DNA of 64,000 nucleotides from a virus. The position numbers and the translations under genes were made by a program. This document shows positions 15,185 through 63,044 of the stretch, piece by piece. How positions within the stretch are numbered: the first letter of the stretch is position 1; every line of letters starts with the position of its first letter. The notes beneath the pieces are model-generated. The model was not told the DNA's origin, ran no database searches, and saw nothing but the letters and a program-made list of their open reading frames with translations. Location: IMG/VR virus record IMGVR_UViG_3300029585_000050, one strand, 5' to 3'.

Positions 15185-15607
15185 ATGGCTGATAAACCAA
15201 TTCGAGAAGTACCAATAAGTATTGAATCCCTTTTCAATTTTGAACCACCTTCGTACAAAGAAGGCGTTGATTACTTCTATTATCACATTGATGATATGAC
15301 TGATGAGAAATTAGAAGTCGTCAAAGATGGCAAGATGGTTTTCGTCGTTTATGATGACTACGACCAAGCTTACGATTTCTATGGCCATATCTGTGATAGA
15401 TTTGATAATGAGATAGACAGAAGCTATCTCTGTATCATGGAGCAATGGGATAACCATTCATACGGTGAAATGAAAGCCAAATACACGTTGGAATTAGAAG
15501 AACCAGTCACAATTGAATGGCAATGCCCCGCCGCCAAAGAAGGTATTAACTTGAGTGGTAACGCACTAAATTCTATTGTTAGATTAAAAAGAGGCGATGA
15601 TAAATGA
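15185..15607 (+). CDS. hypothetical protein
   Basis: ORF track. Confidence 0.65.
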   Translation: MADKPIREVPISIESLFNFEPPSYKEGVDYFYYHIDDMTDEKLEVVKDGKMVFVVYDDYDQAYDFYGHICDRFDNEIDRSYLCIMEQWDNHSYGEMKAKYTLELEEPVTIEWQCPAAKEGINLSGNALNSIVRLKRGDDK

Positions 15608-16017
15608 TTAATAACCTATTCAATGTGAAATTATGTGCTGCTACTGGCATGGGTAAAACCACCGCCCTTGTTCGTTTACTGGCACTGGAATCAAGAAAGC
15701 GTAAGGTATTTTTCATCACCGACGAATACACTTATGATTATTTCTATGCCAAGTTAAAGAATGATGAAATTTTGAACATCGGTAGCCCGTTGTATAATTT
15801 GGATAACATTGTTTACCTTGAAACTAAGCAAATGATGGATATGGCATCATTGGACTTCGATACCATCGGTGAGTTCGCCATTTACGATGACACCATGTGT
15901 GGCCATACCCAAGAAGAAATCAACTTCATTGAATCACTAAAGCCGCATCACTATTGTCGTGGTGTTTACACTGGGCACCAGTTGTCTAGGGCGGGTGAAG
16001 TAACAGTTAAAGCATAA
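15604..16017 (+). CDS. short P-loop NTPase-like protein
   Basis: Walker A-like AATGMGKTT. Confidence 0.5.
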   Translation: MINNLFNVKLCAATGMGKTTALVRLLALESRKRKVFFITDEYTYDYFYAKLKNDEILNIGSPLYNLDNIVYLETKQMMDMASLDFDTIGEFAIYDDTMCGHTQEEINFIESLKPHHYCRGVYTGHQLSRAGEVTVKA

Positions 16018-16652
16018 TGAAAAATATGTTTAATTTCGAAGAGGTAAAAGACTTCGATAACCACATCAACATCTCAATACCCAACTATAACGGTTTAATC
16101 GATATAGTCACAGCCTTGAGTTACGAGTACATGAACCCTATGGGCACTTGTATCGACCTTGGATGTAGTACAGGTAAGTTTCTCAATTCGTTGACGAAAC
16201 TGGAAGGTGGTCGGTACATTGGTTGCGATATTGTGACTATGGCCGATGATTATGACTTTGAATTTATTCAGGGTGATTGTCTTGATGTTTTAAAAGGTGT
16301 TGAAGAGACTGATATAATCTTCAGTATCTTTACGTTACAATTCCTTGGTAAGCATAAGCGTAAGCTTGTACTCGAAGAATTGAAACGTAAAATAGATGGC
16401 GGCTCGGCTGTCATCATTGCCGAAAAAGTCTATAGCTCGACTTCTAAAGTTCAAGCTGTGATGACTAGGGAACATATCAAGCAGAAACGTGAAAACTTCA
16501 CAAGCGATGAAATACTCGATAAGGACACCAGTCTGAGTGGGGTTATGTTCTGCAATAATATTGAAGAAATGACGGCTGAACTGGATTTCCTTGGAAACTG
16601 GGAACCAATCTGGCAAAGCTATAACTTTAGAGCTTGGATAGTTTATAAATGA
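16017..16652 (+). CDS. CmoA-like SAM-dependent protein (carboxy-SAM synthase family)
   Basis: FDNHINISIPNY, IDLGCSTG, FTLQFL, AEKV and W-x-x-YNF motifs align with CmoA. Confidence 0.8.
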   Translation: MKNMFNFEEVKDFDNHINISIPNYNGLIDIVTALSYEYMNPMGTCIDLGCSTGKFLNSLTKLEGGRYIGCDIVTMADDYDFEFIQGDCLDVLKGVEETDIIFSIFTLQFLGKHKRKLVLEELKRKIDGGSAVIIAEKVYSSTSKVQAVMTREHIKQKRENFTSDEILDKDTSLSGVMFCNNIEEMTAELDFLGNWEPIWQSYNFRAWIVYK

Positions 16653-17698
16653 ATCAGCTAGAAAGTAATGGTCTTACCATGGTGGATTTGTTCTGTGGCG
16701 CGGGTGTTGGCGCGATGGGGTTCAAATACGCGGGTTATGACATCATCGACGGTATTGACAATATGCCTTACGCCGTTGACACCTATAATATTAATGTGGG
16801 TGAACATGCTAGGCTAGGTGACATTAAAATGATACCAAGTAGCGATATTCCCTACGCCGACGTTTATGTATCAACACCACCTTGTAAATCGTTTTCGGCG
16901 CATGGTAAGAACCTTGGTCGTGATGACCCTGAGAATGGTTCTTTGTTCGAGCATACTATTCGCATCATCCAAGATAATCAGCCAAAAGCTTTTATCATTG
17001 AGAATGTGAAAGGACTTACTTACAAGAAGCATAGTGATTTCTTTGAGTGGGTTATAAAAGAGTTTGCCGAAAGTGGATACCGTGTATCATGGAAATTATC
17101 TGATTGCTATGAATATGGTGTGCCACAAAAAAGGGATAGGGTTTTTATCGTTGGTGTTCGTAAGGACATCGGTGGTTTCTTCGATTTCCCTTTTCCAGAT
17201 GGTCAACTTCGTACTGTACGAGATGCCATCGGTGATTTACCCGAACCATGTGATTCAATTAAGAATCATCATGGGTACGGTGTAAGACCAGATGAAGCCC
17301 CGTTTGTGGATAAAATACCAATCGGTGGCAACTGGAAAGACCTTTGTGAAGAAGACCAGAAGACCTTTATGAAAGGTGGTTACAAGAATCGTCACAAAGG
17401 CGGTAATACAGGTTTCTTGCGTAAAATCTCTATGGATGAGCCTGCTAAAACGATTACCTCTCAAATGAAAGGTAAAAGTAATGCACAATTGCTTGACTTA
17501 AAAGATAAGTTCGGTGATACTCATGAATCACAGAGTCGAAGATTCACTGTTCGTGAGTGTTTGAGACTGCAAACTGTGCCAGATGAATTCTATTTCCCTG
17601 AAGACATCGCACTGGCTAAGCAGTACGAGCGTTGTAGTGGTATACCTTCATTGGTTGCATACAAGCTTGGTGTCGAATTGGCAAAAATGTTGAAATAA
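16649..17698 (+). CDS. C5 cytosine DNA methyltransferase family protein
   Basis: Motif I DLFCGAG, IV PPCKSFS, VI IENVKGL, VIII GVPQKRDRVF, IX RRFTVRECLRLQ; motif X atypical. Confidence 0.92.
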   Translation: MNQLESNGLTMVDLFCGAGVGAMGFKYAGYDIIDGIDNMPYAVDTYNINVGEHARLGDIKMIPSSDIPYADVYVSTPPCKSFSAHGKNLGRDDPENGSLFEHTIRIIQDNQPKAFIIENVKGLTYKKHSDFFEWVIKEFAESGYRVSWKLSDCYEYGVPQKRDRVFIVGVRKDIGGFFDFPFPDGQLRTVRDAIGDLPEPCDSIKNHHGYGVRPDEAPFVDKIPIGGNWKDLCEEDQKTFMKGGYKNRHKGGNTGFLRKISMDEPAKTITSQMKGKSNAQLLDLKDKFGDTHESQSRRFTVRECLRLQTVPDEFYFPEDIALAKQYERCSGIPSLVAYKLGVELAKMLK

Positions 17699-17701
17699 TA
17701 C

Positions 17702-17729
17702 TTGATTTTTTGTCACAGAAGACTATAAT
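17702..17729 (+). promoter_or_regulatory. sigma70-type promoter
   Basis: TTGATT-16nt-TATAAT. Confidence 0.55.
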
Positions 17730-17779: not shown

Positions 17780-18454
17780 ATGAAGAAACTTTTAACTGGT
17801 GCTGTCGCAGCTATGGCGGTACTATCATCAACACAATCGGTTGCATTTGAGCAGTCGGTGGACGTACTAGCGGGTGCATCGTCAAACTATGTATTCCGTG
17901 GTATTCAATTAGACGGTGACGGTACACCATTTGCAGCTTTAGATTACACCGCTGAAGGTTTTCTAGTTGGTACTTACCTAACTACATCACCTCTTGAAGA
18001 CGGTGAAGCTGAATATGACTTTTATGTCGGTTATGGCGGCACAGTAGGTGCATTTGAATTGGGCGCTACGGCGACTCAGTACAATTACACTAATTACGAC
18101 GGTGACGAAACTGAAATCGTTCTATCTGCAAGCGTTGCAGGCTTTTCGGCTGAATTAATCAATGGGAAAGCTCAGTTTGAAGGCACAGACAATGACTACA
18201 TTGGCGGTTCGCTTTCTTACGACCTGAACGCGGGTGGCGTAGATTACGGTGTTCAAGTGGGTACACTTGATTATGACTTAACTGTTGCAGACGGCGGTCT
18301 TGCTGACTACTCTTGGGTAGAATTAAGCTTCGCTATGCCAGTATGGGTTTTAGATACTCGCCTAGCGGTGGGTACACAGTTTGATATTGAAGATGACATC
18401 GAAGAAGATGAATATATCAACTTTACAGTGAGTAAGTCATTTAACTTACTATAA
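17780..18454 (+). CDS. TorF/Gcw_chp-like outer-membrane beta-barrel protein
   Basis: Signal peptide; SNYVFRGI and EYDFYVGY motifs; alternating beta strands; aromatic near the C-terminus. Confidence 0.75.
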   Translation: MKKLLTGAVAAMAVLSSTQSVAFEQSVDVLAGASSNYVFRGIQLDGDGTPFAALDYTAEGFLVGTYLTTSPLEDGEAEYDFYVGYGGTVGAFELGATATQYNYTNYDGDETEIVLSASVAGFSAELINGKAQFEGTDNDYIGGSLSYDLNAGGVDYGVQVGTLDYDLTVADGGLADYSWVELSFAMPVWVLDTRLAVGTQFDIEDDIEEDEYINFTVSKSFNLL

Positions 18455-39395: not shown

Positions 39396-39613
39396 TGGAA
39401 GCTTTATTTCTTGTTTTAGATGTGATGTATTCGTACATGGTTTTAACTGCCTTAATGACGGTATTGTCTATGTTGGAAGAGTTGTATGATATGATGGTGG
39501 GTCGAAGTAAGACGACGTTGACAACAAAAGAGCATTTTATCATTGGCCTTAAATGGCCAATTGAATTCCCAAAGAGTGTGATTAGGGAATGGAGAAACCA
39601 TAACCATGAGTAA
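39395..39613 (+). CDS. small membrane protein
   Basis: Hydrophobic N-terminus; TAATG coupling. Confidence 0.55.
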   Translation: MEALFLVLDVMYSYMVLTALMTVLSMLEELYDMMVGRSKTTLTTKEHFIIGLKWPIEFPKSVIREWRNHNHE

Positions 39614-40736
39614 AGCAATCTACGCATTATCAGGCGACCCTGTTACATTCGGTCACATAAACATCATAGAACGCGCCTCAGACGCTTTTGACGAGCTTAT
39701 CGTGGGGATTGGCTGTAATCCCGCAAAGAAGTATATGTTTACGCTAGAAGAGCGTCTACGGCTCGCTACAAACGCTGTGAAGCACCTAGATAACGTAACC
39801 GTCACCGCATTCAGTGGTTTATTGGTGGATTTTGCCTTTGAGCAGGGTGCCGACATCATTGTCAAAGGTGTACGGGATGCCACCGACTTCGCCTACGAAT
39901 TCAATCTTCACCAAGTTGGCGACACACAGGGTATGGATATTGACACCCATATTCTTTTCACTGACCCTAAAATGGGGCATATTAGTTCCAGTACGGTGAA
40001 AGGTGTACAATTGGAACATGGTGATATTAGCAATTACGTTCCATTGGAAGTGAAAGCCGCCTTAGAACAGCGTGTATCCAATCAGTTCATTATTGGTGTC
40101 ACTGGCCAAATAGCGGCGGGTAAATCAACACTATGTGATGAATTATCCAATAGCGTGAGCCTTGACCCCGATGAAATTGGTATCACGAACATCGACATGG
40201 ATGCATTAGGCCATGAAATATTAGGTGGAGAAGAGCCGACACCTTCTGACATCACCGCCCGTGAAGAAATCATTAAGCGGTTTGGCGAACAGGTGAAGGG
40301 CGACGGCGGCACCATTGATAGAAAACTATTAGCGCCGATGGTATTCGGTAACACGAATGCCATGGAAGAGCTAAACAAAATACTGGCCAAACCATTGAAG
40401 CTTAAACTTCGTCGAGCCTTACATGGTGTTGAAGGTATTGTTTTATTGAACAGTGCTTTAATCGTCGAAGGTAGCAATATGTTAAAGCTTTGTAATAATC
40501 GGGTAATTGTCGTCACCGTCGATGAAGAAGAACAGCTTCGCCGATTGACTGAAGTTCGTGGTCATTCAAGAGAAGATGCTGAAGCTAGAATACGTTCACA
40601 GTTACCCGCACACGAAAAAATAGAAAAAATCAACAAACGGATTGAGGATGATTCATACGGGTTCGTGCATCTATTCAATTCACAAACCGATTCAGTTGAT
40701 TTATTGTATGAAAAATTATTGGATTATTTACCATAA
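39606..40736 (+). CDS. coaD-coaE: bifunctional phosphopantetheine adenylyltransferase / dephospho-CoA kinase
   Basis: N-terminal GDPVTFGHINIIERAS, MFTLEER, IVKGVR..DF.YE, ISSSTVK; C-terminal IIGVTGQIAAGKST, IDMD.LGH, IDRK.LA..VF, RIRSQ. Confidence 0.9.
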   Translation: MSKAIYALSGDPVTFGHINIIERASDAFDELIVGIGCNPAKKYMFTLEERLRLATNAVKHLDNVTVTAFSGLLVDFAFEQGADIIVKGVRDATDFAYEFNLHQVGDTQGMDIDTHILFTDPKMGHISSSTVKGVQLEHGDISNYVPLEVKAALEQRVSNQFIIGVTGQIAAGKSTLCDELSNSVSLDPDEIGITNIDMDALGHEILGGEEPTPSDITAREEIIKRFGEQVKGDGGTIDRKLLAPMVFGNTNAMEELNKILAKPLKLKLRRALHGVEGIVLLNSALIVEGSNMLKLCNNRVIVVTVDEEEQLRRLTEVRGHSREDAEARIRSQLPAHEKIEKINKRIEDDSYGFVHLFNSQTDSVDLLYEKLLDYLP

Positions 40737-40783
40737 AGGGGTTGTAAGTATATCACTTTATGCTATAATCAGTTTTAATTACC

Positions 40784-40861
40784 ACTCGCATTGTAGCTCA
40801 GCAACAGAGCGTCGGCATAAGTCGGAGGTCTTTGGTGTAAGTCCATACGTGTTAGCCGAGT
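40784..40861 (+). pseudogene. degenerate tRNA or tRNA-like RNA
   Basis: D-arm GCTC/GAGC and AGGTC variable loop present; 4-nt anticodon loop, non-TTC T-loop, broken acceptor. Confidence 0.45.
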
Positions 40862-40997
40862 AAAGCAAGTGAAAGTCAGACCATGGGTATACACATCCTG
40901 TCTATTAGCTTGGGTAATTATTTTTTTTTACTAGTTATTTACATTTTAGATTTGAAAATTTGATTGACCTATTGTTAAACCAAATAGGAGAATCAAA

Positions 40998-41276
40998 ATG
41001 AATATAACAGTAAACTTTAAAGCCGAAATGAAATTCGACCACATGGCTCGTACCCTTCATCCAGAAGATTTAGGTCTTAGGGAATCTGGGTGGGTTATAG
41101 TGGGTGAAGTTCACGAAGACTATTATGAATGGGTCAACTTCTTTGTTGCCATACATCCTGATTTCGGTTGGGTATATGGTGATTATGAACACGAACTTCA
41201 TGGTATGTCTAAAAAGGCTTTAGACCATTTTATGACTAATCACCCTGCTTCCGAGTGGGATTATTACGATATATGA
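40998..41276 (+). CDS. hypothetical protein
   Basis: AGGAG SD. Confidence 0.7.
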   Translation: MNITVNFKAEMKFDHMARTLHPEDLGLRESGWVIVGEVHEDYYEWVNFFVAIHPDFGWVYGDYEHELHGMSKKALDHFMTNHPASEWDYYDI

Positions 41277-41387
41277 TGGACTTGGGTGAGGTAAAGCAAC
41301 GGCTCGCTTCTCACCGACGCTGTAAAAAGCTTAGCCGACGTGGGGCTTCGGCTCCACATACTTTTCATTTTTCGAGGAACCCATTTC

Positions 41388-41957
41388 ATGATACCAGATT
41401 ACACGTTTATCGCAGGCTACCTAAGAGGCAAAGGCCATGCCGTTGAGTTAGGTGCATTCGACAATCAAATAGAATTCGAATTTGACATTGATTACCAAAC
41501 ATTAGACGAAACTCAACCAGATAATCAAAATTTATCTGATGAAGAAATGGACATCCAATGTTTAATTGCCGATAAAATTATTCAATTGAACATCACCAGT
41601 TTCACATCAATCAAATATTTGGGTGAATACAGTTACAGCGTTCTTGGTTGTATTGAGCCAATGGACGACAAAGAACTTTACACATTTGTTGAAAATAACA
41701 CATCCACCACAATTTGCGAATACATCAAAATATTACAGAAGCAATGTAAAGAATCCTCCCCTTGGAATGATGTTCGTAAATTAGAACCAACCGTTGGCCA
41801 TAAGGTAATTGTTGAATGCTATGACGAAGCCAACCCTTCCGATTCATGGAAATCCATTTTTTGGTATTGTGGCGATAAAAAATGGTCTAAGACCGCAAGC
41901 CTGAAACCAATAAATTTCGGTGGTCACATTTCCGCCATTCACTGGAAAGAATTATAA
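41388..41957 (+). CDS. hypothetical protein
   Basis: ORF 41340..41957; start moved (GAGG SD). Confidence 0.55.
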   Translation: MIPDYTFIAGYLRGKGHAVELGAFDNQIEFEFDIDYQTLDETQPDNQNLSDEEMDIQCLIADKIIQLNITSFTSIKYLGEYSYSVLGCIEPMDDKELYTFVENNTSTTICEYIKILQKQCKESSPWNDVRKLEPTVGHKVIVECYDEANPSDSWKSIFWYCGDKKWSKTASLKPINFGGHISAIHWKEL

Positions 41958-42169
41958 TGTCTTGGTCAATGCAGATAACATTATATGACGGAAACAAGAA
42001 ATACATCACTTGTGAACAAATTAATGTGGACAGGCATTACAGTTGTAAAGTAATTCATAAACAAATTTTGGCGATTAAAAAAGACTTTCAATATTTCGCA
42101 TATGGTGCTATCTTTCCAGAACTTGAAACACCACATTTAATCAGTAAAGATGATATAAGAGGAGAATAA
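41957..42169 (+). CDS. hypothetical protein
   Basis: TAATG coupling. Confidence 0.55.
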   Translation: MSWSMQITLYDGNKKYITCEQINVDRHYSCKVIHKQILAIKKDFQYFAYGAIFPELETPHLISKDDIRGE

Positions 42170-42173
42170 TTCT

Positions 42174-43586
42174 ATGCAATTTAAACCAGTAAGCCGTGCA
42201 AACGTAACCACACCAATGATTCACTTTTATAAAGGTGAAGCCGACGAACGTCTACAGAAGTTCATTGATGACGGTATGTTTAATACTGAAGTGGTGGGTT
42301 CAGCATTTGTTGATTATTATGATGAACACCAAGTATCAAACCGTGCAATCTATGTGAACATCGGCGACCGTGATGAATTCAAAGCACACACTGGCAACAT
42401 CGACAAAGTAGCTAAAGGGATTGTCGCTTTATTCAACGACAAGTGTACCGAGATAACTTTATGCCTTTCATGTCTTAATTCAGACCTTGATGCCGAAGAC
42501 CTTATTACAGCATTAGCAATTGCTGATTACGAATATGACGTTGAATTCAATGACAATGACGATAAGCGCACAATTTTTTATGTAGAAGATGTCAATGGTC
42601 AATTTGAGGATGTCGTTCACCGTGGTTTAGCTACTGCAAATGGCGTGAACTTCACTCGCTACCTTGGTGACTTACCCGCCAATATCTGTACACCAACCGA
42701 ACTAGCTTCAATAGCATCCAACGAATTGTCCGTTTACAAAAACGTCAAAGTTAATGTGTTAGATGAAGTGAAATGTCGTGAACTTGGTATGAATCTTTTA
42801 ACCAGTGTATCGGACGGTTCTGACGAAGAAGGCAAAGTTATCATTGTGACTTATGATGGTACTGATGAAGAAGAAGCCCTAACACTTGGTTTAGTCGGTA
42901 AAGCCGTGACATTCGACAGTGGTGGTATCAGTATCAAGCCTAGTTCTAAAATGGAAGAAATGAAATACGATATGTGTGGTGGCGCTACTGTATTAGGTAC
43001 AATTCGTGCCTTAGCCGAAGCACAAGTGCCAGTGAATGTTATTGGTATCGTCGGTGCCGTAGAAAACATGCCTAATGGTCGTGCAACAAAGCCTAGTTCT
43101 GTAGTGACTGGTATGTCTGGTCGTACAGTTGAAATCACGAACACTGACGCGGAAGGCCGTCTTGTATTGGCTGACCTATTGACTTACATCGGTGAAATCC
43201 ATGACTGTGATACAGTTATTGACTTGGCCACATTGACTGGTGCATGTTGTGTTGCTCTTGGCGACCACGCGGCGGGTGTATTCTCTCACGATGACCAATT
43301 GGCTCAACAATTAGTTGAAGCGGGTGAAGCAGTGAATGACCGTGCTTGGCGCTTACCAATGTGGGAAGAATACAACAAACAGTTGAAAAGTAAATTCGCT
43401 GATGTGAATAACAGCGCAGGCGGCGGGGCGGGTGCCAGTACGGCGGCTTGCTTCTTAGGTCGTTTCGCCGCTGACTATGATTACACACATGCCCACATGG
43501 ACATCGCGGGTGTAGCATGGGATAAAATGGCCACAGGCCGTCCAGTGAAACTGTTATTGAACTACATCGCAGAACAACGGGTGTAA
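42174..43586 (+). CDS. pepA: leucyl aminopeptidase, M17 family
   Basis: LVGKAVTFDSGGISIK, MKYDMCGGA, VENMPNG, NTDAEGRLVLAD, IDLATLTGA, HMDIAG. Confidence 0.93.
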   Translation: MQFKPVSRANVTTPMIHFYKGEADERLQKFIDDGMFNTEVVGSAFVDYYDEHQVSNRAIYVNIGDRDEFKAHTGNIDKVAKGIVALFNDKCTEITLCLSCLNSDLDAEDLITALAIADYEYDVEFNDNDDKRTIFYVEDVNGQFEDVVHRGLATANGVNFTRYLGDLPANICTPTELASIASNELSVYKNVKVNVLDEVKCRELGMNLLTSVSDGSDEEGKVIIVTYDGTDEEEALTLGLVGKAVTFDSGGISIKPSSKMEEMKYDMCGGATVLGTIRALAEAQVPVNVIGIVGAVENMPNGRATKPSSVVTGMSGRTVEITNTDAEGRLVLADLLTYIGEIHDCDTVIDLATLTGACCVALGDHAAGVFSHDDQLAQQLVEAGEAVNDRAWRLPMWEEYNKQLKSKFADVNNSAGGGAGASTAACFLGRFAADYDYTHAHMDIAGVAWDKMATGRPVKLLLNYIAEQRV

Positions 43587-43590
43587 TCCG

Positions 43591-43905
43591 ATGACTAATA
43601 GTAGAATGCACCTTTGGAATGACTGCTTAGACGAGCTTATTAAAATCTTAGATAAGAAGCCAAGTAAAGTTACATTCTATGCAGAAGGTTTAGATGATGA
43701 CGGCAATGATGTCGAAAGAAGTGTCGTCATCGACCTTCTACCTGATGTAAAATTGAACAATAAAATTGCCAGTATGGATATGAAGATTTCATTGTTGGAA
43801 AAAGAAGCAGCCGAGTCTAAGAAGAAAGACGAAAGGATTGCGGAATTAGAAAAGCAATTGAAAGCACAACAGCAACTTCTATTCATGGGTAGAACCGAGG
43901 TTTAA
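43591..43905 (+). CDS. hypothetical protein with C-terminal coiled coil
   Basis: ORF track. Confidence 0.6.
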   Translation: MTNSRMHLWNDCLDELIKILDKKPSKVTFYAEGLDDDGNDVERSVVIDLLPDVKLNNKIASMDMKISLLEKEAAESKKKDERIAELEKQLKAQQQLLFMGRTEV

Positions 43906-43908
43906 ATT

Positions 43909-44226
43909 ATGCGTAAAGCGTCTATTGAAGAGTTATATTTAACTCACCTTCCAGTTGAATTCATGGGTTTCACGCCAAAGTATTTTGTTATGGATACCGA
44001 TGGTGTTCAATGGATTTGTCATAATGAACCAAAGTTCGACGGGTATGATTGGGTATTCCAAGAATTCTATGAAATCGGAATCGACGACGAAGATTTAAAA
44101 CATACACCAAAATGTGTGATAGGTTTATCCCCACAAGAATGCATATTTGAAATTGAGGGGTCTGATAGAATCATTGATACCACATCGGGTGAATACAATA
44201 GTGTACAATGGCCACACCTACAATAA
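43909..44226 (+). CDS. hypothetical protein
   Basis: GAGGT SD. Confidence 0.6.
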   Translation: MRKASIEELYLTHLPVEFMGFTPKYFVMDTDGVQWICHNEPKFDGYDWVFQEFYEIGIDDEDLKHTPKCVIGLSPQECIFEIEGSDRIIDTTSGEYNSVQWPHLQ

Positions 44227-44240
44227 TGTTGGGGAACTAT

Positions 44241-45380
44241 ATGTTAAAAGCAATTGATTACGATGATAGCCATGCTGAATTTGAAAGAGGTATAACGGCT
44301 TTCATTGCAGACAAAATTACACCTTACTATGACGAATGGGAAAAACGTGGATACGTTGACCGTGAAATCTGGCGTGAGATGGGTTCAATGGGTATGCTAT
44401 GCCCGAATGTTTCACACGAGTACGGCGGCTTTGACGATTTCAGCTACAACATTGTCGTCAATGAAGCTTTATGCCGTAACTATGCAACATCGCTTGCTGT
44501 AGGTAACGCTATTCACTCTGACATCGTTGCAACCTACATTGAGACATATGGCACCAAAGAGCAAAAGGAAACATGGCTACCGTCCATGGTTTCTGGCGAC
44601 GTGTTGGCCAGTCTTGGTATGACAGAACCTAATGCGGGTTCAGATTTAGGTGCTGTATCAACCAAAGGCGTTTACGACGGTGATGATATAGTCATTTCTG
44701 GTCAAAAGGTATTCATCACAAATGGTTACTTGGCCGATATGATGCTTACCGCAGTCAGAACAGAGGGTGAAGGCTATGGTGGCGTAAGTTTAGTAATCAT
44801 CGACTTGAATGATGACAACGTTTCACGAACCCTATTGGATAAGATTGGTCTTAAATCACAAGACACCGCTGAAATTTATTTGGAAGAGGTGCGTGTACCT
44901 AAATCGAATATCCTTGGGCAAGCGGGTCATGGCTTCTACATGATGATGAATGAATTACCACGCGAACGTCTTTCCTTGTGCATCGGTGCCGTGGCATCTG
45001 CCCGTCAAATCCTGAATGACACCATCGTCTACGTTAAAGAGCGTGAAGCGTTCGGTCGTCCTATCGCAAAATTCCAAAACACCCAGTTTGAATTGGCTGA
45101 TATGGATTCTTCATTAATGGCGGCTGAAACATTTACCCGTCACTGTGCGGCATTGGATTTAAAGGGTAAGCTAACTACTGAGATGGCATCACGTCTTAAA
45201 GTGTTCACCACTGACCTTCAATGCGATGTCACTGACCGTTGTTTACAGTTACATGGTGGTTATGGCTTCATGCGCGAATATAATGTCGCACGGGCTTATT
45301 GTGACGGTCGTGTGCAGAAGATTTACGGCGGAACCAATGAAATCATGAAAGTTTTAATTGCTCGTGAGTTGTTGAAATGA
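44241..45380 (+). CDS. acyl-CoA dehydrogenase
   Basis: GMTEPNAGSDL, ISGQKVFITNG, KIGLKSQDTAEI, REAFGRPI.KFQ, LQLHGGYG, IYGGTNEI; start moved from 44208 to 44241. Confidence 0.95.
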   Translation: MLKAIDYDDSHAEFERGITAFIADKITPYYDEWEKRGYVDREIWREMGSMGMLCPNVSHEYGGFDDFSYNIVVNEALCRNYATSLAVGNAIHSDIVATYIETYGTKEQKETWLPSMVSGDVLASLGMTEPNAGSDLGAVSTKGVYDGDDIVISGQKVFITNGYLADMMLTAVRTEGEGYGGVSLVIIDLNDDNVSRTLLDKIGLKSQDTAEIYLEEVRVPKSNILGQAGHGFYMMMNELPRERLSLCIGAVASARQILNDTIVYVKEREAFGRPIAKFQNTQFELADMDSSLMAAETFTRHCAALDLKGKLTTEMASRLKVFTTDLQCDVTDRCLQLHGGYGFMREYNVARAYCDGRVQKIYGGTNEIMKVLIARELLK

Positions 45381-45844
45381 GTGCGCCGTCGTATGCTATC
45401 TATTACAAAGATGGTGAACAAGTTGGTAGGGGATTCATTAACGTCGGGCTATACTATGACGAAGAGCGCCTTTACCACCAGATTAATGCCCATGGTATTG
45501 ACTACGATGAAGTGTTTGCATACGACACCACCTTCACCCGCGAATTCATTGATGAGCGTTTAGGGTTACTGTTTGCTTTCGAGAAATGTCGAATTTATGC
45601 AGAGAGTGAAACACGAAAATCATTTAGTTCTAAATTGGTTGACGGCGAACGTTACTATTACCTGAAAAACAAATACGAAGAACCTACGCCAATTAAGGTT
45701 CCACTTATTAAAAAGGTGATGCCTGATATTATGGCTAGTGATATATGTTCAGTGCAACCAATGACGGGTGACGTTGCCGAAATCAACCGTATTTCTTTCA
45801 ACGCAGCGAAGAATGTTTACGAAGATGACAATGGAAAAAATTGA
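45377..45844 (+). CDS. hypothetical protein with C-terminal gp23 Gol-region-like segment
   Basis: PLIKKVMPDIMASDICSVQPMTG. Confidence 0.6.
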   Translation: MSAPSYAIYYKDGEQVGRGFINVGLYYDEERLYHQINAHGIDYDEVFAYDTTFTREFIDERLGLLFAFEKCRIYAESETRKSFSSKLVDGERYYYLKNKYEEPTPIKVPLIKKVMPDIMASDICSVQPMTGDVAEINRISFNAAKNVYEDDNGKN

Positions 45845-45847
45845 AAA

Positions 45848-46126
45848 ATGCATAGACTTTACCCAGATGATTATGATACAATCAGCCGTTCTTTAAAATA
45901 CACCGAACCTCAATTAGAAGTTATCAAGAACGTCAACTTCGCAGGGTGGGGAGCAAGGCAATTTAAGGTTGATGACCCCGAACGATATTACACTGTGACT
46001 GGCATTAGTGAACAAATTAACGACATCATCGAAGAAGGTTTTGATGTTGGTTATGTTTACTTCTTTGAAGTGAGAGGTGGTTTACCAACAATGCAAAGAA
46101 AAGCTGTAACTTTGAGAAATGTATAA
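45848..46126 (+). CDS. hypothetical protein
   Basis: ORF track. Confidence 0.6.
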   Translation: MHRLYPDDYDTISRSLKYTEPQLEVIKNVNFAGWGARQFKVDDPERYYTVTGISEQINDIIEEGFDVGYVYFFEVRGGLPTMQRKAVTLRNV

Positions 46127-46653
46127 TGATTGCATGGCATAAGTGTTCAAGAATAACACAAGATTACCCATTAAAAGCTAGTGGGTATTACGAGAAAGTG
46201 GAAGACGGTAAGCCTACTGGCATCATCGTCAAAGACTTCACTGCTTACCCCGATTGTGAAACATATGATTGGGCGCACATTGAAAAAATAACCAGTGGCA
46301 ACACCGAAAAGGTCGCAGTGATTGAAAACCAAATTAAAAGCGAAGAAGTAGAAGATATGACTAATACATTAAAGACCGACTCATTAGAAGTAACATTGAG
46401 CGGTGATTCTGTAGTCATCACACCGTCAATTGAAACCAAAATCGAAACAGTCACCCAAGAAGTCTTATATGACATCTGGAAAGTTGACTATGAATGGACT
46501 GGTGACGATGAAACGGTTTATTGGGCTAAGTCTAAAAAAGAGGCTAAAGGGTTTAAAGAATTCTTAGAGAAGAAATTCACTGGTCACAAAGTAACCATCA
46601 AAGCAATCACTAAATTATCAATTTGCCAAGTAGAGAAGATTGAAATTGACTAA
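46126..46653 (+). CDS. hypothetical protein
   Basis: TAATG coupling. Confidence 0.6.
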   Translation: MIAWHKCSRITQDYPLKASGYYEKVEDGKPTGIIVKDFTAYPDCETYDWAHIEKITSGNTEKVAVIENQIKSEEVEDMTNTLKTDSLEVTLSGDSVVITPSIETKIETVTQEVLYDIWKVDYEWTGDDETVYWAKSKKEAKGFKEFLEKKFTGHKVTIKAITKLSICQVEKIEID

Positions 46654-47812
46654 ACTACGTTGGATAGTACAAGAGAACCTTTATAACGAACAGGGTTATG
46701 CTCGTTTCATTGAGGCGTTGATTCGTCTTGAGTGCGATTACATGGTTGTTAAAGTTGTTCCATTCGTGAATAAAGTTTTGCCTGAAGGATTTGATTCATG
46801 GTCAGACGACTACGAAAGTGCTATTGACCCAATCACCGACGACAGTTACCCAATGTTTGTTTGTGGGGCGACGACGCTTACTAATATCACATTGGAACGA
46901 GGTTGGGTGCCGGGTAGTTTTATTAACGATAACCTACATTATTCTAAGTGGAAAGAGAATTGGGGCGATAACCTATTGAACCCAGATTCTAAAGTGGGTG
47001 TCGCGGGTGACTTCTTGGATATACCACGGGGCGATTATTTCGTAAGGCCAACTGAGGATACTAAATCATTCAGTGGCACCGTCTTCACTGGCGACCAATT
47101 CAAACAATGGGCTATTGGTATTAGTGACGTTGTTGAGACAGAATATTCACCGTTACATCATAATACAGAAATTGTGGTTTCTTCGATGAAGACCATTTAC
47201 AACGAATGTCGTTTGTTCATTGTCGATGGTGAAGTGGTGACGGCTAGTATGTATAAGGCGGGTAATCGCGTCCAAGGAAACCCAGACGTTGACCAACGCT
47301 ATTTGGATTTCGCTAAAGAGATGACAGACATCTGGGCACCCGCCGAAGGTTTCGTCATGGATGTGGCTGATACCCCAAATGGACTAAAGATAATTGAGGT
47401 GAATAACCTTAATTCCGCAGGCTTCTATGCTTGCGACACCTATAAAATAGTAAACGCCATCGAAGAATGGTGGGAAAGGAAATGCAGTAAAATGAACAAC
47501 AATGATGAACTTATTAATTTCGTTGAAGAGTTAAGAGCCGTTCTACCATGTTACCAGACTCGCGAAACGGAAACATACCGTCGTCTTGCCATCATCAATG
47601 GCTTAAATTGCACAAAGAACGATACCATTATCATTTCTAAGAATTCATTATTTAAGAAAGCGGCTAACACCGTCTTAGAAACAGAATTGGTGAACAACTT
47701 AGATACCATCATCTATTCCGATGTTGTCGATGACGATGAAGTGGTAATTGGAACACCAAATGATGCGGAAGCACGTATCGTTAAAATTACAACCGACTAC
47801 GAACCATGGTAA
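46640..47812 (+). CDS. ATP-grasp protein (R2K/DUF4343-like) with C-terminal extension
   Basis: FVRP.EDTKSFSG, ECRLFIVDG, FVMDVA, KIIEVNN.NSAGFY. Confidence 0.75.
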   Translation: MKLTKLRWIVQENLYNEQGYARFIEALIRLECDYMVVKVVPFVNKVLPEGFDSWSDDYESAIDPITDDSYPMFVCGATTLTNITLERGWVPGSFINDNLHYSKWKENWGDNLLNPDSKVGVAGDFLDIPRGDYFVRPTEDTKSFSGTVFTGDQFKQWAIGISDVVETEYSPLHHNTEIVVSSMKTIYNECRLFIVDGEVVTASMYKAGNRVQGNPDVDQRYLDFAKEMTDIWAPAEGFVMDVADTPNGLKIIEVNNLNSAGFYACDTYKIVNAIEEWWERKCSKMNNNDELINFVEELRAVLPCYQTRETETYRRLAIINGLNCTKNDTIIISKNSLFKKAANTVLETELVNNLDTIIYSDVVDDDEVVIGTPNDAEARIVKITTDYEPW

Positions 47813-57292: not shown

Positions 57293-58930
57293 ATGAGTAA
57301 ACCACAGTTAAAAACGCGAAAAGATAATACGCAGTTAATGATTATCGGCGGTATTGTAACTGTAGTTGCTCTGATTGGTATGGTGGCTTTCAAACTGTTA
57401 TCAGATTCAAAGACACTATCGTTATCAGATGCGGCTAACATTGAACACACAGTTAATATCGGCGTTGATGATTGGGCGGGGTATTTCTACCTATGTTCAA
57501 ACAAAACACGCCAATTCGCCATCGAAGACGGTATTCTTATTCAATGTGAACACGAAGAAAACGGCATAGACTTCGATGAACGTTTCCAAAAATTACGCGA
57601 CGGTGAACTTCAATTAGCTGCTATGACGGCTGATACCTATGTTCGCGTCAGTGATGACCACCGTACACAATTCTCAAGCGTCGTCGGCGTTATTGATGAA
57701 TCATTCGGCGGTGATGCTATCCTAATGCGTAAAGACCTAGTAATCGATGGAACGACACCAACCGAGTCATTTAAGCAGGCATCTCGTTTATCATTAGGTT
57801 TCACTGACGAAAGCCCATCAAGCATGATTGTCACCAGTTGGAAAAGTGACTTCGGTATTCAACTCGATGACCAAACTCGATACACTGTTGTTGAAACTGA
57901 AGGTTCAAAGGACGCATGTGATAAATTAATACGCGGCGAAATCGATGCGGCGGCATGTTGGGAGCCACATGTAACAAAGGCATTGGATACAGGTAAATTC
58001 GTCAAGGTTATTGGCTCAGATGAAACCAAAAACCTTATAGTTGACATCTTAGTTGGTAATAACGACTTCATTAATAAAGGTGATGTACTTGAGCGCGTGT
58101 TGAAAGCATACGGTAAGTCTATGGACTTCTACGGCACCAACCCAGATGAACTAGATGATGACATGAGTGATTACACCAACCTTAAAGGTAAGCAACTAGA
58201 ATCACTTATGAATGGTATTAAATGGACTACATTAGTTGACAATGGTACAAACTGGCTTGGCATCACCTACGGCGGTGGCCTTAAAGGTAACATCCAGTTG
58301 TTCGACACATTCAAGATTGTGACTAACCTTTTAATCAGCAATGATGAAATTTCATCCAGTCCATTCCAGAACGAAGACCCATTCACTGCCATCAACTCGA
58401 CACCGATTTCTCGTGTGTTCGCGGTGGGTGAATCAGGTAACATCGGTTATCCATTCATTGTACCAACAAAAGTTGAGAATATGGGTATCAGTCGTCCATT
58501 CAAGAAAGCATCGGCGGCACGTTGGATGAAAATGAAGCCAGTGGGTTCTGTTGACATCCCTAAGATTAAATTCAAGTCGGGTAAAGATGAATTTCAACCT
58601 GCCATGGAAGAGCAAGAAGCATTCACTCGCATCGTTGATATTTTGCTGAAATACCCTAACTATCGCCTTAAAATCGAAGGTCATACAAGTTGTGGTACAG
58701 TAGATTGTAAGTACGATGACGTTGACGCAGGCATGGATTTATCGAAAGCTCGTGCGGTGGCTGTGCATAAAGTGTTGGTTGACCAACTAGGTGTACACAA
58801 AAACCGTGTTATGACTACGGGTTATGGTAGCTCTAAACCAGTTAAACGCCGCCTTGTCGATGGTAAGTTCGAATCGAAACGCGCATGGTTAAAGCGTTGG
58901 GCACGAGTTGAAATTATTTTAGTAAGATAG
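57293..58930 (+). CDS. membrane-anchored NMT1/TauA-like substrate-binding domain fused to a C-terminal OmpA-like domain
   Basis: N-terminal TM helix; IGVDDWAGY, IDESFGGDAI, CWEPHVT; IEGHT..LSKARAVAV..L, GYGSSKPV, RVEI. Confidence 0.8.
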   Translation: MSKPQLKTRKDNTQLMIIGGIVTVVALIGMVAFKLLSDSKTLSLSDAANIEHTVNIGVDDWAGYFYLCSNKTRQFAIEDGILIQCEHEENGIDFDERFQKLRDGELQLAAMTADTYVRVSDDHRTQFSSVVGVIDESFGGDAILMRKDLVIDGTTPTESFKQASRLSLGFTDESPSSMIVTSWKSDFGIQLDDQTRYTVVETEGSKDACDKLIRGEIDAAACWEPHVTKALDTGKFVKVIGSDETKNLIVDILVGNNDFINKGDVLERVLKAYGKSMDFYGTNPDELDDDMSDYTNLKGKQLESLMNGIKWTTLVDNGTNWLGITYGGGLKGNIQLFDTFKIVTNLLISNDEISSSPFQNEDPFTAINSTPISRVFAVGESGNIGYPFIVPTKVENMGISRPFKKASAARWMKMKPVGSVDIPKIKFKSGKDEFQPAMEEQEAFTRIVDILLKYPNYRLKIEGHTSCGTVDCKYDDVDAGMDLSKARAVAVHKVLVDQLGVHKNRVMTTGYGSSKPVKRRLVDGKFESKRAWLKRWARVEIILVR

Positions 58931-58959
58931 TTGACATTAACATAGGCGGTATGTAATAT
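58931..58959 (+). promoter_or_regulatory. sigma70-type promoter
   Basis: TTGACA-17nt-TAATAT. Confidence 0.55.
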
Positions 58960-58992
58960 GCCGTCTAAGCAAACAAATTAAGAGGAAAAAAT

Positions 58993-60084
58993 ATGGAAGC
59001 ACAAATTGATTTAGACCGCATGACTAAAGAAGTCATCAAGGTTGAGGTGATTAAACGCTCGTTTAAAAGCTTACTGACCCTTGTACCATTAATGCTTGGT
59101 GTATTGGGTATTGGCTCATGGGCAATTCTTGATACTGGCCTTTGGCACCTTGGTATCGGCGTTGGCTTATTAGTAGTGGCGGTACTGGGCTATGTCTGGA
59201 ACTACACACAACGCTATTATGTTTTCCAAAACGACTACCTTGAAGAATTACACTGGGAAGTTGCCTTTGAAAACGAATGGAAACTTGAAGAATTCAAAGA
59301 AGTCTTCGAGGAATTCGACATCGAAGAAGCATACGACCAAGTGAACCTTCTTAAAGCGAAAAGTGAAGCATTCTATGAAGTATTGGAATCTCGTTTCGAA
59401 GAAGGCGAACTCACACACTCACGTTACCGTTCAGTCGCTGACCAAACTTACAAGTCGGTTCTTTATAACCTGAACGAAATCACAATTAAGCTAAAAGCAA
59501 TCGAAGGCATAGACATCGACCGCTTACATTCTCAAATCAATAGCACATATGACGAACCTAAGCTGAAAAGTCTTAAAGAACGTCTGGCTATCTATGAAGG
59601 CGCACACGAAGAAATCAGAAAGTTATTAGACTTGAATGACAAAGCTATGACTGAACTTGACGGCTTCACCGTTATGATTTCTAATGCAAACGTTGACCGC
59701 TTCGACCCAGAAGAAGAGTTACATAAGGCACTAGAACGTATCTCAGGTATGACTAGCCAAGAAATCGTTGCCGAATTCGACGACGAAGAAGAAGGCTTTG
59801 AAGGCTTACATGATGCTATGGAAGTATTAGCTGATACAATTGCCGAAGAAGTTTCTGTTGAAAAATATCTTGACGAACCATCGCATGAACAGGTAGACTT
59901 ATCACAAATGGATTATGAATCACATGATGAACCTGTTATCACTCGTCGCTACGATGACGACACAGCATCGTACCGTGTGCCTGAACCAGAACCAGTTTCG
60001 TATGATACATCTAGCTATGAAGAAACGACGAGTTATGACAACTCATCATCTTATGACTCGTATGATTCATCAGATGACTACTAA
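58993..60084 (+). CDS. two-TM coiled-coil protein with acidic Ser/Tyr/Asp tail
   Basis: Two N-terminal TM helices, helical core, low-complexity C-terminus. Confidence 0.7.
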   Translation: MEAQIDLDRMTKEVIKVEVIKRSFKSLLTLVPLMLGVLGIGSWAILDTGLWHLGIGVGLLVVAVLGYVWNYTQRYYVFQNDYLEELHWEVAFENEWKLEEFKEVFEEFDIEEAYDQVNLLKAKSEAFYEVLESRFEEGELTHSRYRSVADQTYKSVLYNLNEITIKLKAIEGIDIDRLHSQINSTYDEPKLKSLKERLAIYEGAHEEIRKLLDLNDKAMTELDGFTVMISNANVDRFDPEEELHKALERISGMTSQEIVAEFDDEEEGFEGLHDAMEVLADTIAEEVSVEKYLDEPSHEQVDLSQMDYESHDEPVITRRYDDDTASYRVPEPEPVSYDTSSYEETTSYDNSSSYDSYDSSDDY

Positions 60085-60125
60085 TTAAACAATTTTAAAT
60101 TAACCCCAAAAAGAGGAAATACATT

Positions 60126-61142
60126 ATGAAAAACTTGTTTAAATCACTGGCAGTATCTGCCGCACTAACCCTAAGCGCATTTGCTACTGCAAGTGATAAG
60201 CCTACCCTAATCGGTTGGTCACACTTTGTAACATGGGAATCGCTTGGTGTTGCCCAATCTGAAGGCATCGTTGATAAGTACAATGAAAAGTACGGCACCA
60301 ACGTTGAATTCAAATACATCGGTGACTACATCGACTCAATCACACTTTACACTGACCGTGACCTTGCGGGTGTAGCGACGACAACCATGGACATCCTTGC
60401 TTTTGCGGGTGTTGGTAAGCGTCATTCAGAAGTGTTGCGTGTAACTGACTACTCTAACAGCGCCGACGCAGTTATGATTAAAGGTTACTCTGACCTAAAC
60501 GACGCTTTGGACAATGGTGCCACTGTAAACCTTATTGAGTTTTCAGTATCACACTACCTTTTAGCAAGCTGTGTTGAAGCAGTGGGCGGCGACATCGACG
60601 ATTTAGTATTAGAAAATGCTAAAACTGACGCGGTTATCCCTTCTACACTTAAAGCTAAGTCTCAATTCGTTGGTGTAACTTGGAACCCATTACTTGAAAC
60701 TGTTAAAGGTATTTCGGGTGCTAAGGTTGCTTGTGACTCTTCATCAATCAAAGGTGAAATCCTTGATACGGTTGTTGTAGGTGACGAAGTAACTGCCGCT
60801 GAGAAGAAAACTATCTTAGCTTCAATTAACGAAGTTCTTTCATTAATGGCCAAGCGCGATGGTGAAACGTTGAAAGCAGTTGCTGAACAAGCGGGTACTT
60901 CTACTAAAAGCATTAACATGATGCTTGATGGCGTGGAAATTTTCGACACCACCGCTAAAGAAGCAAAGTTTGTTAATGATAGCGCGAACCTACGTCGCAT
61001 CATGGACAAAGTTACGACTTTCAGCTTCAACGCAGGCGTATGGGATGCTGTTGATAGCAAAGACGAGTTAGGTATCAAGTTTGCAGATGGTTCTGTACTA
61101 GGCGACCCTAACAACATCGTGTTGACTTTCCCTGCACGATAA
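60126..61142 (+). CDS. ABC transporter substrate-binding protein (NitT/TauT-like)
   Basis: Signal peptide; YIDSITLY, TDYSNSADAV, SVSHYLL, VTWNP, GEILD. Confidence 0.8.
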   Translation: MKNLFKSLAVSAALTLSAFATASDKPTLIGWSHFVTWESLGVAQSEGIVDKYNEKYGTNVEFKYIGDYIDSITLYTDRDLAGVATTTMDILAFAGVGKRHSEVLRVTDYSNSADAVMIKGYSDLNDALDNGATVNLIEFSVSHYLLASCVEAVGGDIDDLVLENAKTDAVIPSTLKAKSQFVGVTWNPLLETVKGISGAKVACDSSSIKGEILDTVVVGDEVTAAEKKTILASINEVLSLMAKRDGETLKAVAEQAGTSTKSINMMLDGVEIFDTTAKEAKFVNDSANLRRIMDKVTTFSFNAGVWDAVDSKDELGIKFADGSVLGDPNNIVLTFPAR

Positions 61143-61155
61143 GGTTAAATCCCTT

Positions 61156-61179
61156 GGGCTTAGTAATAAAGCTAAGCCC
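61156..61179 (+). promoter_or_regulatory. intergenic stem-loop between binding-protein and permease genes
   Basis: GGGCTTAG-TAATAAAG-CTAAGCCC. Confidence 0.55.
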
Positions 61180-61207
61180 TAAACTTATTTTAACTGTCTG
61201 AGGAGAT

Positions 61208-62146
61208 ATGAACATGAGAAAAATTATTTTAGGAATGATACCGTTTTTGTTAATCATCATTGGTTATCATTTCTTAGCAGACGCACGTCACGAACAAAAG
61301 AAGCTGAAAGGTGAAGAAGAGCTAATCACACCTTACTACAGTAAAATTTTCAAGGCTGCAAACGAATACACGTTTGAAAAGACTGCCACCGTATTTTCGC
61401 CATTCATGTCCAATAAAGAAGTGGCCACCATCAAGAAAGAACAGCGTAAAGCATGTTTAGAACAAATCGGCGATACAATGTCGAAACGTGATGCGAAGAA
61501 GCATTGTAAATCACAGGCTTACCAAGAAAGCCGTTTATGGAACGATATTAAAGCCAGTGGATTCCGCATGATAGTCGGCATCACTATTGCTGTTGTCATT
61601 GCATTCCCATTAGGTTTGATTTTGGGATTATTTAAGACTAGCCGTGAATTGTTATCACCATTCATTGTATTCTTGTCAATTATTCCACCATTGTCGTTAC
61701 TGCCTGCATTCCTTTTAACATTGGGTACAGGTGAGATTGCCAAGATTGCTTTAATCGTGGTCGGCTTGGTGTTCTTATTGACCCGCGACATCGAACGTGA
61801 AGTGTTGGCATTCCCTACCGAATTGAAAATCAAGGCTATGACATTGGGTGCATCGAATTTTGATATGATATTCCGCATCATTGCCCCACAAATGATGCCA
61901 ATTGTATTGAACATGGTTTGTTTACAACTTGGTGCGGCATGGTTGTTCTTATTAGCCAGTGAGGCTATGGCGGCTCAGTCTGGACTAGGTTACACTATTT
62001 ACCTATCACAGCGTTACTTGGCAATGGATGTAATCATCTTCTATGTTATGGTAATCACATTCCTTGGCTTTTTGTTGAATAAGTCAATAAAAATGTTGAA
62101 TGTTAAGTTGTTCCCGTGGTACGCTGCAATCAATGGAGGTAAATAA
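61208..62146 (+). CDS. ABC transporter permease (NitT/TauT family)
   Basis: Multiple TM helices; IPPLSLLP, A.TLGAS, AWLFLLASE, GLGY. Confidence 0.88.
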   Translation: MNMRKIILGMIPFLLIIIGYHFLADARHEQKKLKGEEELITPYYSKIFKAANEYTFEKTATVFSPFMSNKEVATIKKEQRKACLEQIGDTMSKRDAKKHCKSQAYQESRLWNDIKASGFRMIVGITIAVVIAFPLGLILGLFKTSRELLSPFIVFLSIIPPLSLLPAFLLTLGTGEIAKIALIVVGLVFLLTRDIEREVLAFPTELKIKAMTLGASNFDMIFRIIAPQMMPIVLNMVCLQLGAAWLFLLASEAMAAQSGLGYTIYLSQRYLAMDVIIFYVMVITFLGFLLNKSIKMLNVKLFPWYAAINGGK

Positions 62147-62147
62147 T

Positions 62148-63017: not shown

Positions 63018-63044
63018 ATTAAACCTTACAAGAGGAAATATATT

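Follow-up and report, generated by a model that had tools for sequence, protein, structure and literature searches.

The 64,000-nucleotide (nt) stretch of the viral record IMGVR_UViG_3300029585_000050 that we analysed (the window, whose numbering applies to all positions given without a locus label) carries a cassette of two overlapping genes, one for a protein of the CmoA family and one for a C5-cytosine DNA transferase in which the Asn of motif X is missing. In our judgement, which draws on sequence comparison and on the company such transferases keep, this cassette is probably a phage DNA carboxymethylation pair of the CmoA-CmoX kind, in which a transferase without the Arg350 of CmoX would have converged on the use of carboxy-S-adenosylmethionine (carboxy-SAM, Cx-SAM) supplied by the synthase next door. 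Systems of this kind are known: CmoA-CmoX-CmoY of Synechococcus phage S-B43 writes 5-carboxymethylcytosine (5cxmC; Yang et al., Nat Commun, December 2025, PMC12783734; its CmoX is PDB entry 8YF3). It was with this paper that 5cxmC was first described as a natural base. What is new, as far as the sequences tell, is the lineage of the transferase, which is HaeIII-like and lacks Arg350. The search filter of Yang et al. required SPPC together with R350 (PMC12783734), and for this reason the published search would have missed the window enzyme.

An initial annotation of the window had proposed a non-methyl cytosine modification for this locus and had referred to reported phage pairs of CmoA and a methyltransferase that write 5-carboxymethylcytosine. 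Such pairs have indeed been published (PMC12783734), and a non-methyl modification still appears the best reading of the locus, since the comparison of genomes links this form of motif X with CmoA genes.

The gene pair and the shortened motif X

Both genes belong to a string of four plus-strand open reading frames (ORFs) at 15185-17698, in which each stop overlaps the next start, and they share an ATGA overlap of the kind associated with translational coupling. This overlap, the matches of the transferase to PF00145 (216 bits) and TIGR00675 (192 bits) and the CmoA structures found with its neighbor uphold the initial description of an overlapping CmoA-like and C5 methyltransferase gene. The relevant features are:

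16017..16652, + strand: CmoA-family gene, putative carboxy-SAM synthase, 211 amino acids (aa); TIGR00740, phrog_4752, CmoA PDB matches, motifs
16524..16526, + strand: codon of Asp170, aligned with E. coli CmoA Arg199 in three alignments
16649..17698, + strand: class C C5-cytosine DNA transferase, putative DNA carboxymethyltransferase, 349 aa; PF00145, AlphaFold model, Foldseek
16883..16885, + strand: codon of the catalytic Cys79 in motif IV, STPPC; column invariant in 48 homologues
17621..17647, + strand: motif X variant QYERCSGIP, residues 325-333; Asn304/Arg350 column deleted
17630-17632, + strand: codon of the invariant Arg328 within the motif X variant

In the transferase, motif I, STPPC with Cys79, ENV and QKRDR are all intact. 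The canonical G-N-[AS]-V of motif X is absent, and residues 325-333 read QYERCSGIP, as had been claimed from the start; an alignment with M.HaeIII by HMMER requires a one-residue gap at the Asn. Enzymes whose motif X has the form x-R-C-S-G-[IV]-P are here called class C, and their canonical relatives are those with Y-R-I-V-G-N-G, of the SPbeta/phi3T type. When 48 class C sequences are aligned profile to profile with 23 sequences of the Arg350 type, exactly one column is deleted, namely that of Arg350 in the CmoX of S-B43 (SpCmoX) and of Asn304 in M.HhaI. The motif is invariant in more than 100 homologue clusters and thus is not a chance feature. Motif IV takes the forms GGFPC, ATPTC and others in the wider class C family.

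The initial annotation had described the Asn as lost and an Arg as gained. An Arg is present, at position 328, but it does not replace the Asn: it aligns with Gln301 of M.HhaI and with Arg347 of SpCmoX rather than with Arg350, three positions upstream of the Asn site, and both MAFFT and the profile-profile alignment pair the E-R of the window enzyme with E346-R347 of SpCmoX. By the numbering of the S-B43 record, Arg350 is the Arg of V-G-R-M-V-P-P and R347, in T-E-R, precedes it by three residues; the SpCmoX R350N primer in the supplement of PMC12783734 is consistent with that numbering. Loss of the Asn and presence of the Arg at -3 coincide in this transferase family; where the Asn is kept, position -3 is Met, Gly or Ile. 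An AlphaFold model of the transferase (predicted local distance difference test score, pLDDT, 92.9) places a helix at 322-327, a loop at 328-333 in which C-S-G-I-P follows R328, and a further helix from 334. Its invariance, its coincidence with the loss of the Asn and its place beside the shortened loop suggest R328 as the residue that may contact the carboxylate of the cofactor. The Lys that follows the catalytic Cys (PCK, at the position of Gln82 in HhaI) was considered as a substitute charge and rejected; K, Q, T and L all occur there among CmoA-linked class C enzymes.

A protein of Bacillus phage phi18-2, gp83 (L016:2498-3751), resembles the target-recognition region of the window enzyme in its N-terminal ~70 residues (IP-x-GGNW-x-DL...TITA). 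It is a canonical G-N methyltransferase with complete motifs I-X.

The CmoA-like protein matches TIGR00740 of NCBIfam with E 1.4e-19 and 70.8 bits, which does not reach the curated equivalog cut-off of 193.3, and PRK15451 with 57.9 bits, which does not reach the cut-off of 285; the match to phrog_4752 has E 3e-36. Its best sequence matches in PDB are the CmoA entries 4IWN and 4GEK (E. coli) and 1IM8 (H. influenzae YecO). Searched with the single sequence, 4IWN and 4GEK are found at E 1e-14 and the next match, FtsJ, at 5e-3; a family profile of 47 homologues finds 1IM8, 4GEK and 4IWN at E ~1e-33 and the next methyltransferase at 1e-10. The CmoA motifs SIPNY, DLGCSTG, FTLQF and AEK are retained together with Lys169. 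The residues that contact the cofactor in E. coli CmoA have been listed by Byrne et al. (PMC3663124), and the counterparts of Tyr39, Asp62, Gly64, Ser66, Asp89, Asp117, Phe137 and FTLQF are retained by the window protein and by almost the whole family. At the position of E. coli Arg34, where the CmoA of S-B43 (SpCmoA) has Lys, the window protein has Ile. Its family membership suggests that the protein is a Cx-SAM synthase, which would make carboxy-SAM from SAM and prephenate.

It had been cautioned in the initial annotation that the position of Arg199 in E. coli CmoA appears to be Asp here and that the cofactor could for this reason be another SAM derivative. The substitution is real: a HMMER pairwise alignment, a MAFFT alignment with the E. 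coli sequence taken from NC_000913.3 and the family profile set against 4GEK and 1IM8 agree in pairing ILDKDTSL with ISQKRSML, and thereby Asp170 with Arg199. In E. coli CmoA, Arg199 is the sole residue that contacts the carboxylate of Cx-SAM (PMC3663124, PMC4482062). However, SpCmoA is a proven Cx-SAM synthase, about 10 times faster than E. coli CmoA (PMC12783734), and has Glu in this column; an acidic residue, Asp or Glu, occupies it in 79 of the 82 family members. The loss of Arg199 is thus not an argument for another cofactor. E. coli CmoA binds its product tightly (PMC4482062), and it is tempting to speculate that the loss of Arg199 allows faster product release, which would suit the supply of a genome-wide modification.

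Association of motif X classes with CmoA genes

A search seeded with CmoA returned 86 protein clusters and at least 537 IMG/VR loci, of which the best 80 loci were read. In 75 of these 80 a C5 transferase is adjacent to the CmoA relative, and the motif X of the adjacent transferase ORFs is G-R in 69, G-M in 6 and partial or unreadable in 2; among the 75 CmoA-adjacent transferases with a readable motif X, the canonical G-N was found in none. The reverse search was seeded with the transferase and thus blind to CmoA, and it covered 110 viral and genomic loci with purpose-built hidden Markov models for CmoA and for the transferase. Here, 18 of 19 class C loci have a CmoA match no more than 6 kb away, as compared to 0 of 84 loci of canonical G-N relatives, a count that overstates independence, since the canonical controls belong mostly to one clade, that of SPbeta-like prophages; after clustering at 70% identity, the figures are 13 of 15 and 0 of 8 (Fisher p ~9e-5).

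The CmoA gene may stand upstream or downstream of the class C gene, or one gene away from it, which indicates that the linkage has outlasted rearrangement. Two further class C proteins, chosen from the protein search for their long contigs and originating from Bacillus cereus-group assemblies and from a metagenome, have a CmoA-family gene immediately upstream (E 1e-51 and 1e-53). The closest relative of the window pair (L006; 62% and 57% identity) has the same arrangement and lies on a 477-kb contig. In one locus (L011:2871-5129), a 752-aa fusion beside CmoA combines an Arg350-type domain, with L-Y-E-R-S-G-R-G-I-V, and a class C domain, with Q-Y-E-R-C-S-G-I-P, and in three others (L097, L098, L107) a single CmoA is accompanied by two transferases, one G-M and one class C. 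No CmoA was seen beside near relatives in which the Asn is retained (P0117, P0199) or in which Gly is present and nothing is deleted (P0179, P0170), on contigs of only 3-7 kb.

A maximum-likelihood tree of CmoA places the partners of class C enzymes at no fewer than five separately supported positions. Ten of them fall inside the clade of E. coli CmoA (support 100/100), and several of these retain Arg199. The clade of the window CmoA (support 100/99) partners all three classes of transferase, including G-R. Since class C enzymes thus partner CmoAs that bear Arg199, and since the window clade also partners G-R enzymes, Cx-SAM is favoured as the common cofactor.

The third of these classes has a motif X of the form x-N-G-M-[TS]-V, with Met for the Asn and no nearby Arg. 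It is found next to CmoA at L009:4124-5017, L010:2220-3134, L017-L019, L021, L057, L094, L097:4147-5091, L098:5082-6002 and L107:5079-6017. Its motif IV is often PC[QS]DIS, and its CmoA partners are of the window clade, sometimes alongside a class C enzyme. Pairs of CmoA and class C were also seen in Bacillota (L177, L195, L213-L215), namely in Bacillus sp. M6-12, on an Aneurinibacillus plasmid and in Bacillus cereus-group assemblies, where the pair adjoins a relaxase-like gene; L177 and L195 have an additional divergent transferase downstream. A further pair (L216) lies on a metagenomic contig with chromosome-like neighbours.

CmoA relatives occur in other settings, too. At L007:5001-6352, and likewise at L008, a relative with 53% identity adjoins a methyltransferase of PF05175 (MTS) and not a C5 DNA transferase, and the neighbours at L007 include glycosyltransferases, a carbamoyltransferase, a DegT aminotransferase, an epimerase and a radical SAM enzyme; in this setting, the group carried by the cofactor may be passed to a sugar or to some acceptor other than DNA. 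In Erwinia phage Yoloswag (gp16-gp17, L005:2938-4596), a CmoA homologue that keeps Arg199 is without an adjacent C5 transferase and is followed by a PP-loop protein (SGGIDS) that looks like an AMP-forming ligase of the CmoY type.

Carboxymethylation weighed against its alternatives

If the cassette carries out DNA carboxymethylation, the C5 transferase would flip out its target cytosine, Cys79 would attack C6, and the carboxymethyl group of the Cx-SAM made by the CmoA-family enzyme would be transferred to C5. The product would be 5cxmC at the recognition sites in the phage DNA, where, by analogy with SpCmoX, it would probably block host restriction enzymes, so that an anti-restriction use is conceivable. 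The HaeIII-like lineage would solve the recognition of the cofactor in a different manner than SpCmoX: the Asn that adjoins the transferred group in motif X is deleted, Ser-Gly is left in the loop, and R328, at the C-terminus of the helix before the loop, would take over the carboxylate contact of SpCmoX Arg350. A phmmer search of all window ORFs with SpCmoY gave no match, and neither a second transferase nor a second CmoA was found within the window. Since the window contains no hypermodification ligase of the CmoY type, the end product may be plain 5cxmC. An R2K-clade ATP-grasp ligase gene at 46640-47812 was considered as a part of the cassette and dismissed, as it has no counterpart in related loci.

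The parallels with S-B43 are close. In both, a phage CmoA homologue adjoins a C5 transferase without the motif-X Asn, the CmoA has an acidic residue in the column of E. coli Arg199, and the pair is co-oriented and tightly packed, with 5cxmC for restriction protection as the predicted product. However, the window transferase is of another lineage than SpCmoX, to which it is 22-27% identical, and is nearer to M.HaeIII; its Arg350 column is deleted, it has STPPC and not SPPC, and it carries none of the large insertions of SpCmoX. Furthermore, the window CmoA belongs to a shorter subfamily than SpCmoA (211 vs. 231 aa), and the CmoY ligase of S-B43 has no counterpart in the window. Because Arg350 and SPPC are both lacking and the lineage is HaeIII-like, we do not file the window transferase as a CmoX in the published sense, though it more probably than not works like one.

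The engineered carboxymethyltransferases M.MpeI N374K and M.MedI N377K (PMC12783734, PMC12015181) likewise are changed at the motif-X Asn next to the transferred group, which allows them to use Cx-SAM. They have Lys at the Asn position, whereas in the window enzyme the position is deleted and the new basic residue lies three upstream. The argument of the initial annotation that carboxy-SAM is admitted once a basic residue replaces the Asn agrees with M.MpeI N374K and cannot be transferred directly to an enzyme in which the column is gone. With M.HaeIII, M.HhaI and the phi3T/SPbeta-type methyltransferases the window enzyme shares motifs I, IV, VI, VIII and IX; these enzymes, in contrast, keep G-N in motif X, and it is the phage canonical relatives among them that stood beside CmoA in none of the 84 cases sampled. 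The CmoA-like protein, for its part, has the fold of E. coli CmoA (4GEK, 4IWN) and H. influenzae YecO (1IM8) as well as S-[IV]-P-x-Y, FTLQF, [SA]-E-K and Lys198, but differs from E. coli CmoA, a Cx-SAM synthase that serves 5-carboxymethoxyuridine at position 34 of tRNA (cmo5U34), in having Asp for Arg199 and a DNA transferase instead of CmoB as its partner.

Several observations, besides the uneven controls mentioned above, speak against carboxymethylation by this pair. Arg350 and SPPC of the published CmoX are both absent from the window transferase, the R350N mutant of SpCmoX is inactive (PMC12783734), and M.MedI N377K is ~360-fold better at carboxymethyl transfer than the Asn form (PMC12783734, PMC12015181), which shows that in other enzymes a charge at the exact site of the Asn matters. 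The CmoA-like protein lies far below the NCBIfam cut-off for CmoA and is only ~27-30% identical to SpCmoA. Also, some class C enzymes occur without a phage CmoA: there is none in the records of Vibrio phage 1.161.O and of ICP1 1992_Ind_M4, whose class C enzymes are 46-48% identical to the window transferase, and none on the class C-bearing metagenomic viral contig L101 (estimated 67% complete). The hosts of these Vibrio phages are Gammaproteobacteria, which according to the literature possess CmoA. SpCmoX has been found to work in E. coli on the Cx-SAM of the host (PMC12783734). The phages with class C and without CmoA are thus explicable by host CmoA, and use of SAM would fit them too. The two Vibrio phage genes are:

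L001:3995-5017 (1.161.O): class C transferase, annotated as methylase or hypothetical
L002:3995-5014 (ICP1 1992_Ind_M4): class C transferase, annotated as methylase or hypothetical

It could be argued from these phages that the transferase is an ordinary SAM-dependent methyltransferase for 5-methylcytosine (5mC) with a tolerated motif-X variant, and that CmoA serves cmo5U34 of tRNA or drains the SAM of the host. In fold and sequence the transferase indeed is closest to ordinary methyltransferases, the best Foldseek matches being M.HaeIII (template modelling, TM, scores 0.75/0.80) and M.HhaI, while SpCmoX (8YF3) comes at rank 13 (TM 0.67/0.70); a basic residue is absent from the Asn304 position; and the window encodes five tRNA genes, among them a tRNA-Thr(UGU) with an anticodon of the cmo5U type. 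According to Yang et al., depletion of SAM could be a secondary role of phage CmoA (PMC12783734). Nonetheless, we consider this explanation unlikely, because it leaves unexplained why CmoA is linked to 18 of 19 class C and 0 of 84 canonical loci, why the Asn is lost in every readable CmoA-adjacent C5 enzyme, and why CmoA and class C travel as pairs in the genomes and plasmids of Bacillota. Bacillota are known to make 5-methoxyuridine (mo5U) rather than cmo5U. No CmoB turned up among the larger annotated ORFs of the window, though no search aimed at CmoB was made.

A still less likely alternative is that the product of the CmoA-like enzyme is not carboxy-SAM but another SAM derivative, formed for instance from a different co-substrate, and that the transferase installs a different group at C5. 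The Asp in the Arg199 column, the Ile at the position of E. coli Arg34, the low identity to SpCmoA and the score below the CmoA cut-off would all be in line with this, as would the fact that G-M transferases, in which a hydrophobic Met takes the site of the Asn, are likewise partners of the window CmoA clade, and that one CmoA relative adjoins the PF05175 methyltransferase in a sugar-modification cluster. However, the proven SpCmoA likewise lacks Arg199, the window clade also partners G-R transferases with their carboxylate-binding signature, and class C enzymes elsewhere partner CmoAs that bear Arg199; the signature motifs of CmoA are conserved as well. Finally, a promiscuous transferase might use both SAM and Cx-SAM, with the mixture of 5mC and 5cxmC set by the cofactor pools, which we regard as the most doubtful of the alternatives considered here. 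M.HhaI engineered to carry a small residue at N304 can use larger SAM analogues, and the class C loop offers small residues and no charge at the exact site. Wild-type M.MedI, in which the Asn is kept, uses both cofactors, Cx-SAM weakly (PMC12783734, PMC12015181). SpCmoX, on the other hand, is strictly specific for Cx-SAM (PMC12783734), and the fact that R328 is invariant points to a contact kept by selection rather than to steric hindrance simply being lost.

Returning to carboxymethylation, we would put it at about an even chance that class C constitutes a second, convergently evolved natural family of DNA carboxymethyltransferases, which recognises Cx-SAM not by Arg350 but via a relocated Arg and a shortened loop. 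If this is the case, the family would extend well past the cyanophages and span large marine phages, the present one among them, plasmids and prophages of Bacillota that bring in a CmoA of their own, and Vibrio phages, an ICP1 isolate included, that live on host Cx-SAM, and 5cxmC would be present also in bacterial and plasmid DNA. The published definition of CmoX would then leave out a considerable part of the diversity found in nature, the G-M type included. Activity of class C with Cx-SAM would further imply that the signature of SPPC and Arg350 is not necessary and that the modification is more widespread than reported. It would represent a convergent rewiring of one cofactor pocket, and it would provide a second natural scaffold for DNA carboxymethyl labelling, one that is HaeIII-like, compact and probably of different sequence specificity; engineered carboxymethyltransferases are already in use for labelling in methylome sequencing.

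Site avoidance and genome context

For the phage, the cassette would be one anti-restriction measure beside an extreme avoidance of palindromic sites. Over positions 1-64000, GATC is absent (~200 expected) and CCGG occurs twice (~93 expected). CCWGG, GWGCWC and CYCGRG each have a count of 0, GGWCC and CCNGG of 2 and GGNCC of 4, and 36 of the 64 hexamer palindromes are wholly absent. Site avoidance thus appears to be the main anti-restriction strategy of this phage. GGCC, GCGC, CGCG, AGCT, TGCA and TCGA are still frequent, and these remaining sites are candidate targets of the transferase.

The immediate surroundings of the pair contain three further features:

15185..15607, + strand: small upstream ORF, function unassigned; part of the overlapping gene string
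15604..16017, + strand: small upstream ORF with a P-loop-like GMGKT; TAATG overlap with the CmoA-like ORF
17702..17729, + strand: promoter-like site, TTGATT, 16 nt spacer, TATAAT, just 3′ of the transferase gene; consensus match only

The two upstream ORFs match no Pfam or PHROG family. They, including the P-loop protein, were considered as members of the module and rejected: they have no homologue in ~200 related loci and for this reason probably lie outside the conserved module. The promoter-like site may mark the end of the cassette, going by its match to the consensus; promoter-like sites in the region are no more numerous than in shuffled sequence. The next gene (17780-18454) encodes a 224-aa protein with a hydrophobic, signal-peptide-like N-terminus that matches PF09694 (Gcw_chp), whose members have no known function and are unusual in phages.

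A megablast search of the window against GenBank phages gave no match and thus no near relative. Pattern searches of IMG/VR with single proteins likewise returned zero close relatives, and alignment-based searches were required to find them. The 64 kb look like part of a large phage, with nearly all genes on the plus strand, the five tRNA genes, an RNA ligase, a primase zinc finger and many auxiliary metabolic genes. A run of the latter extends over 39606-47812 and comprises a fused protein resembling pantetheine-phosphate adenylyltransferase and dephospho-CoA kinase (39606-40736), an M17 leucyl aminopeptidase (42174-43586), an acyl-CoA dehydrogenase (44208-45380) and the R2K-clade ATP-grasp ligase mentioned above. 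OmpA-like, ABC transporter and TelA genes follow at 57293-63998.

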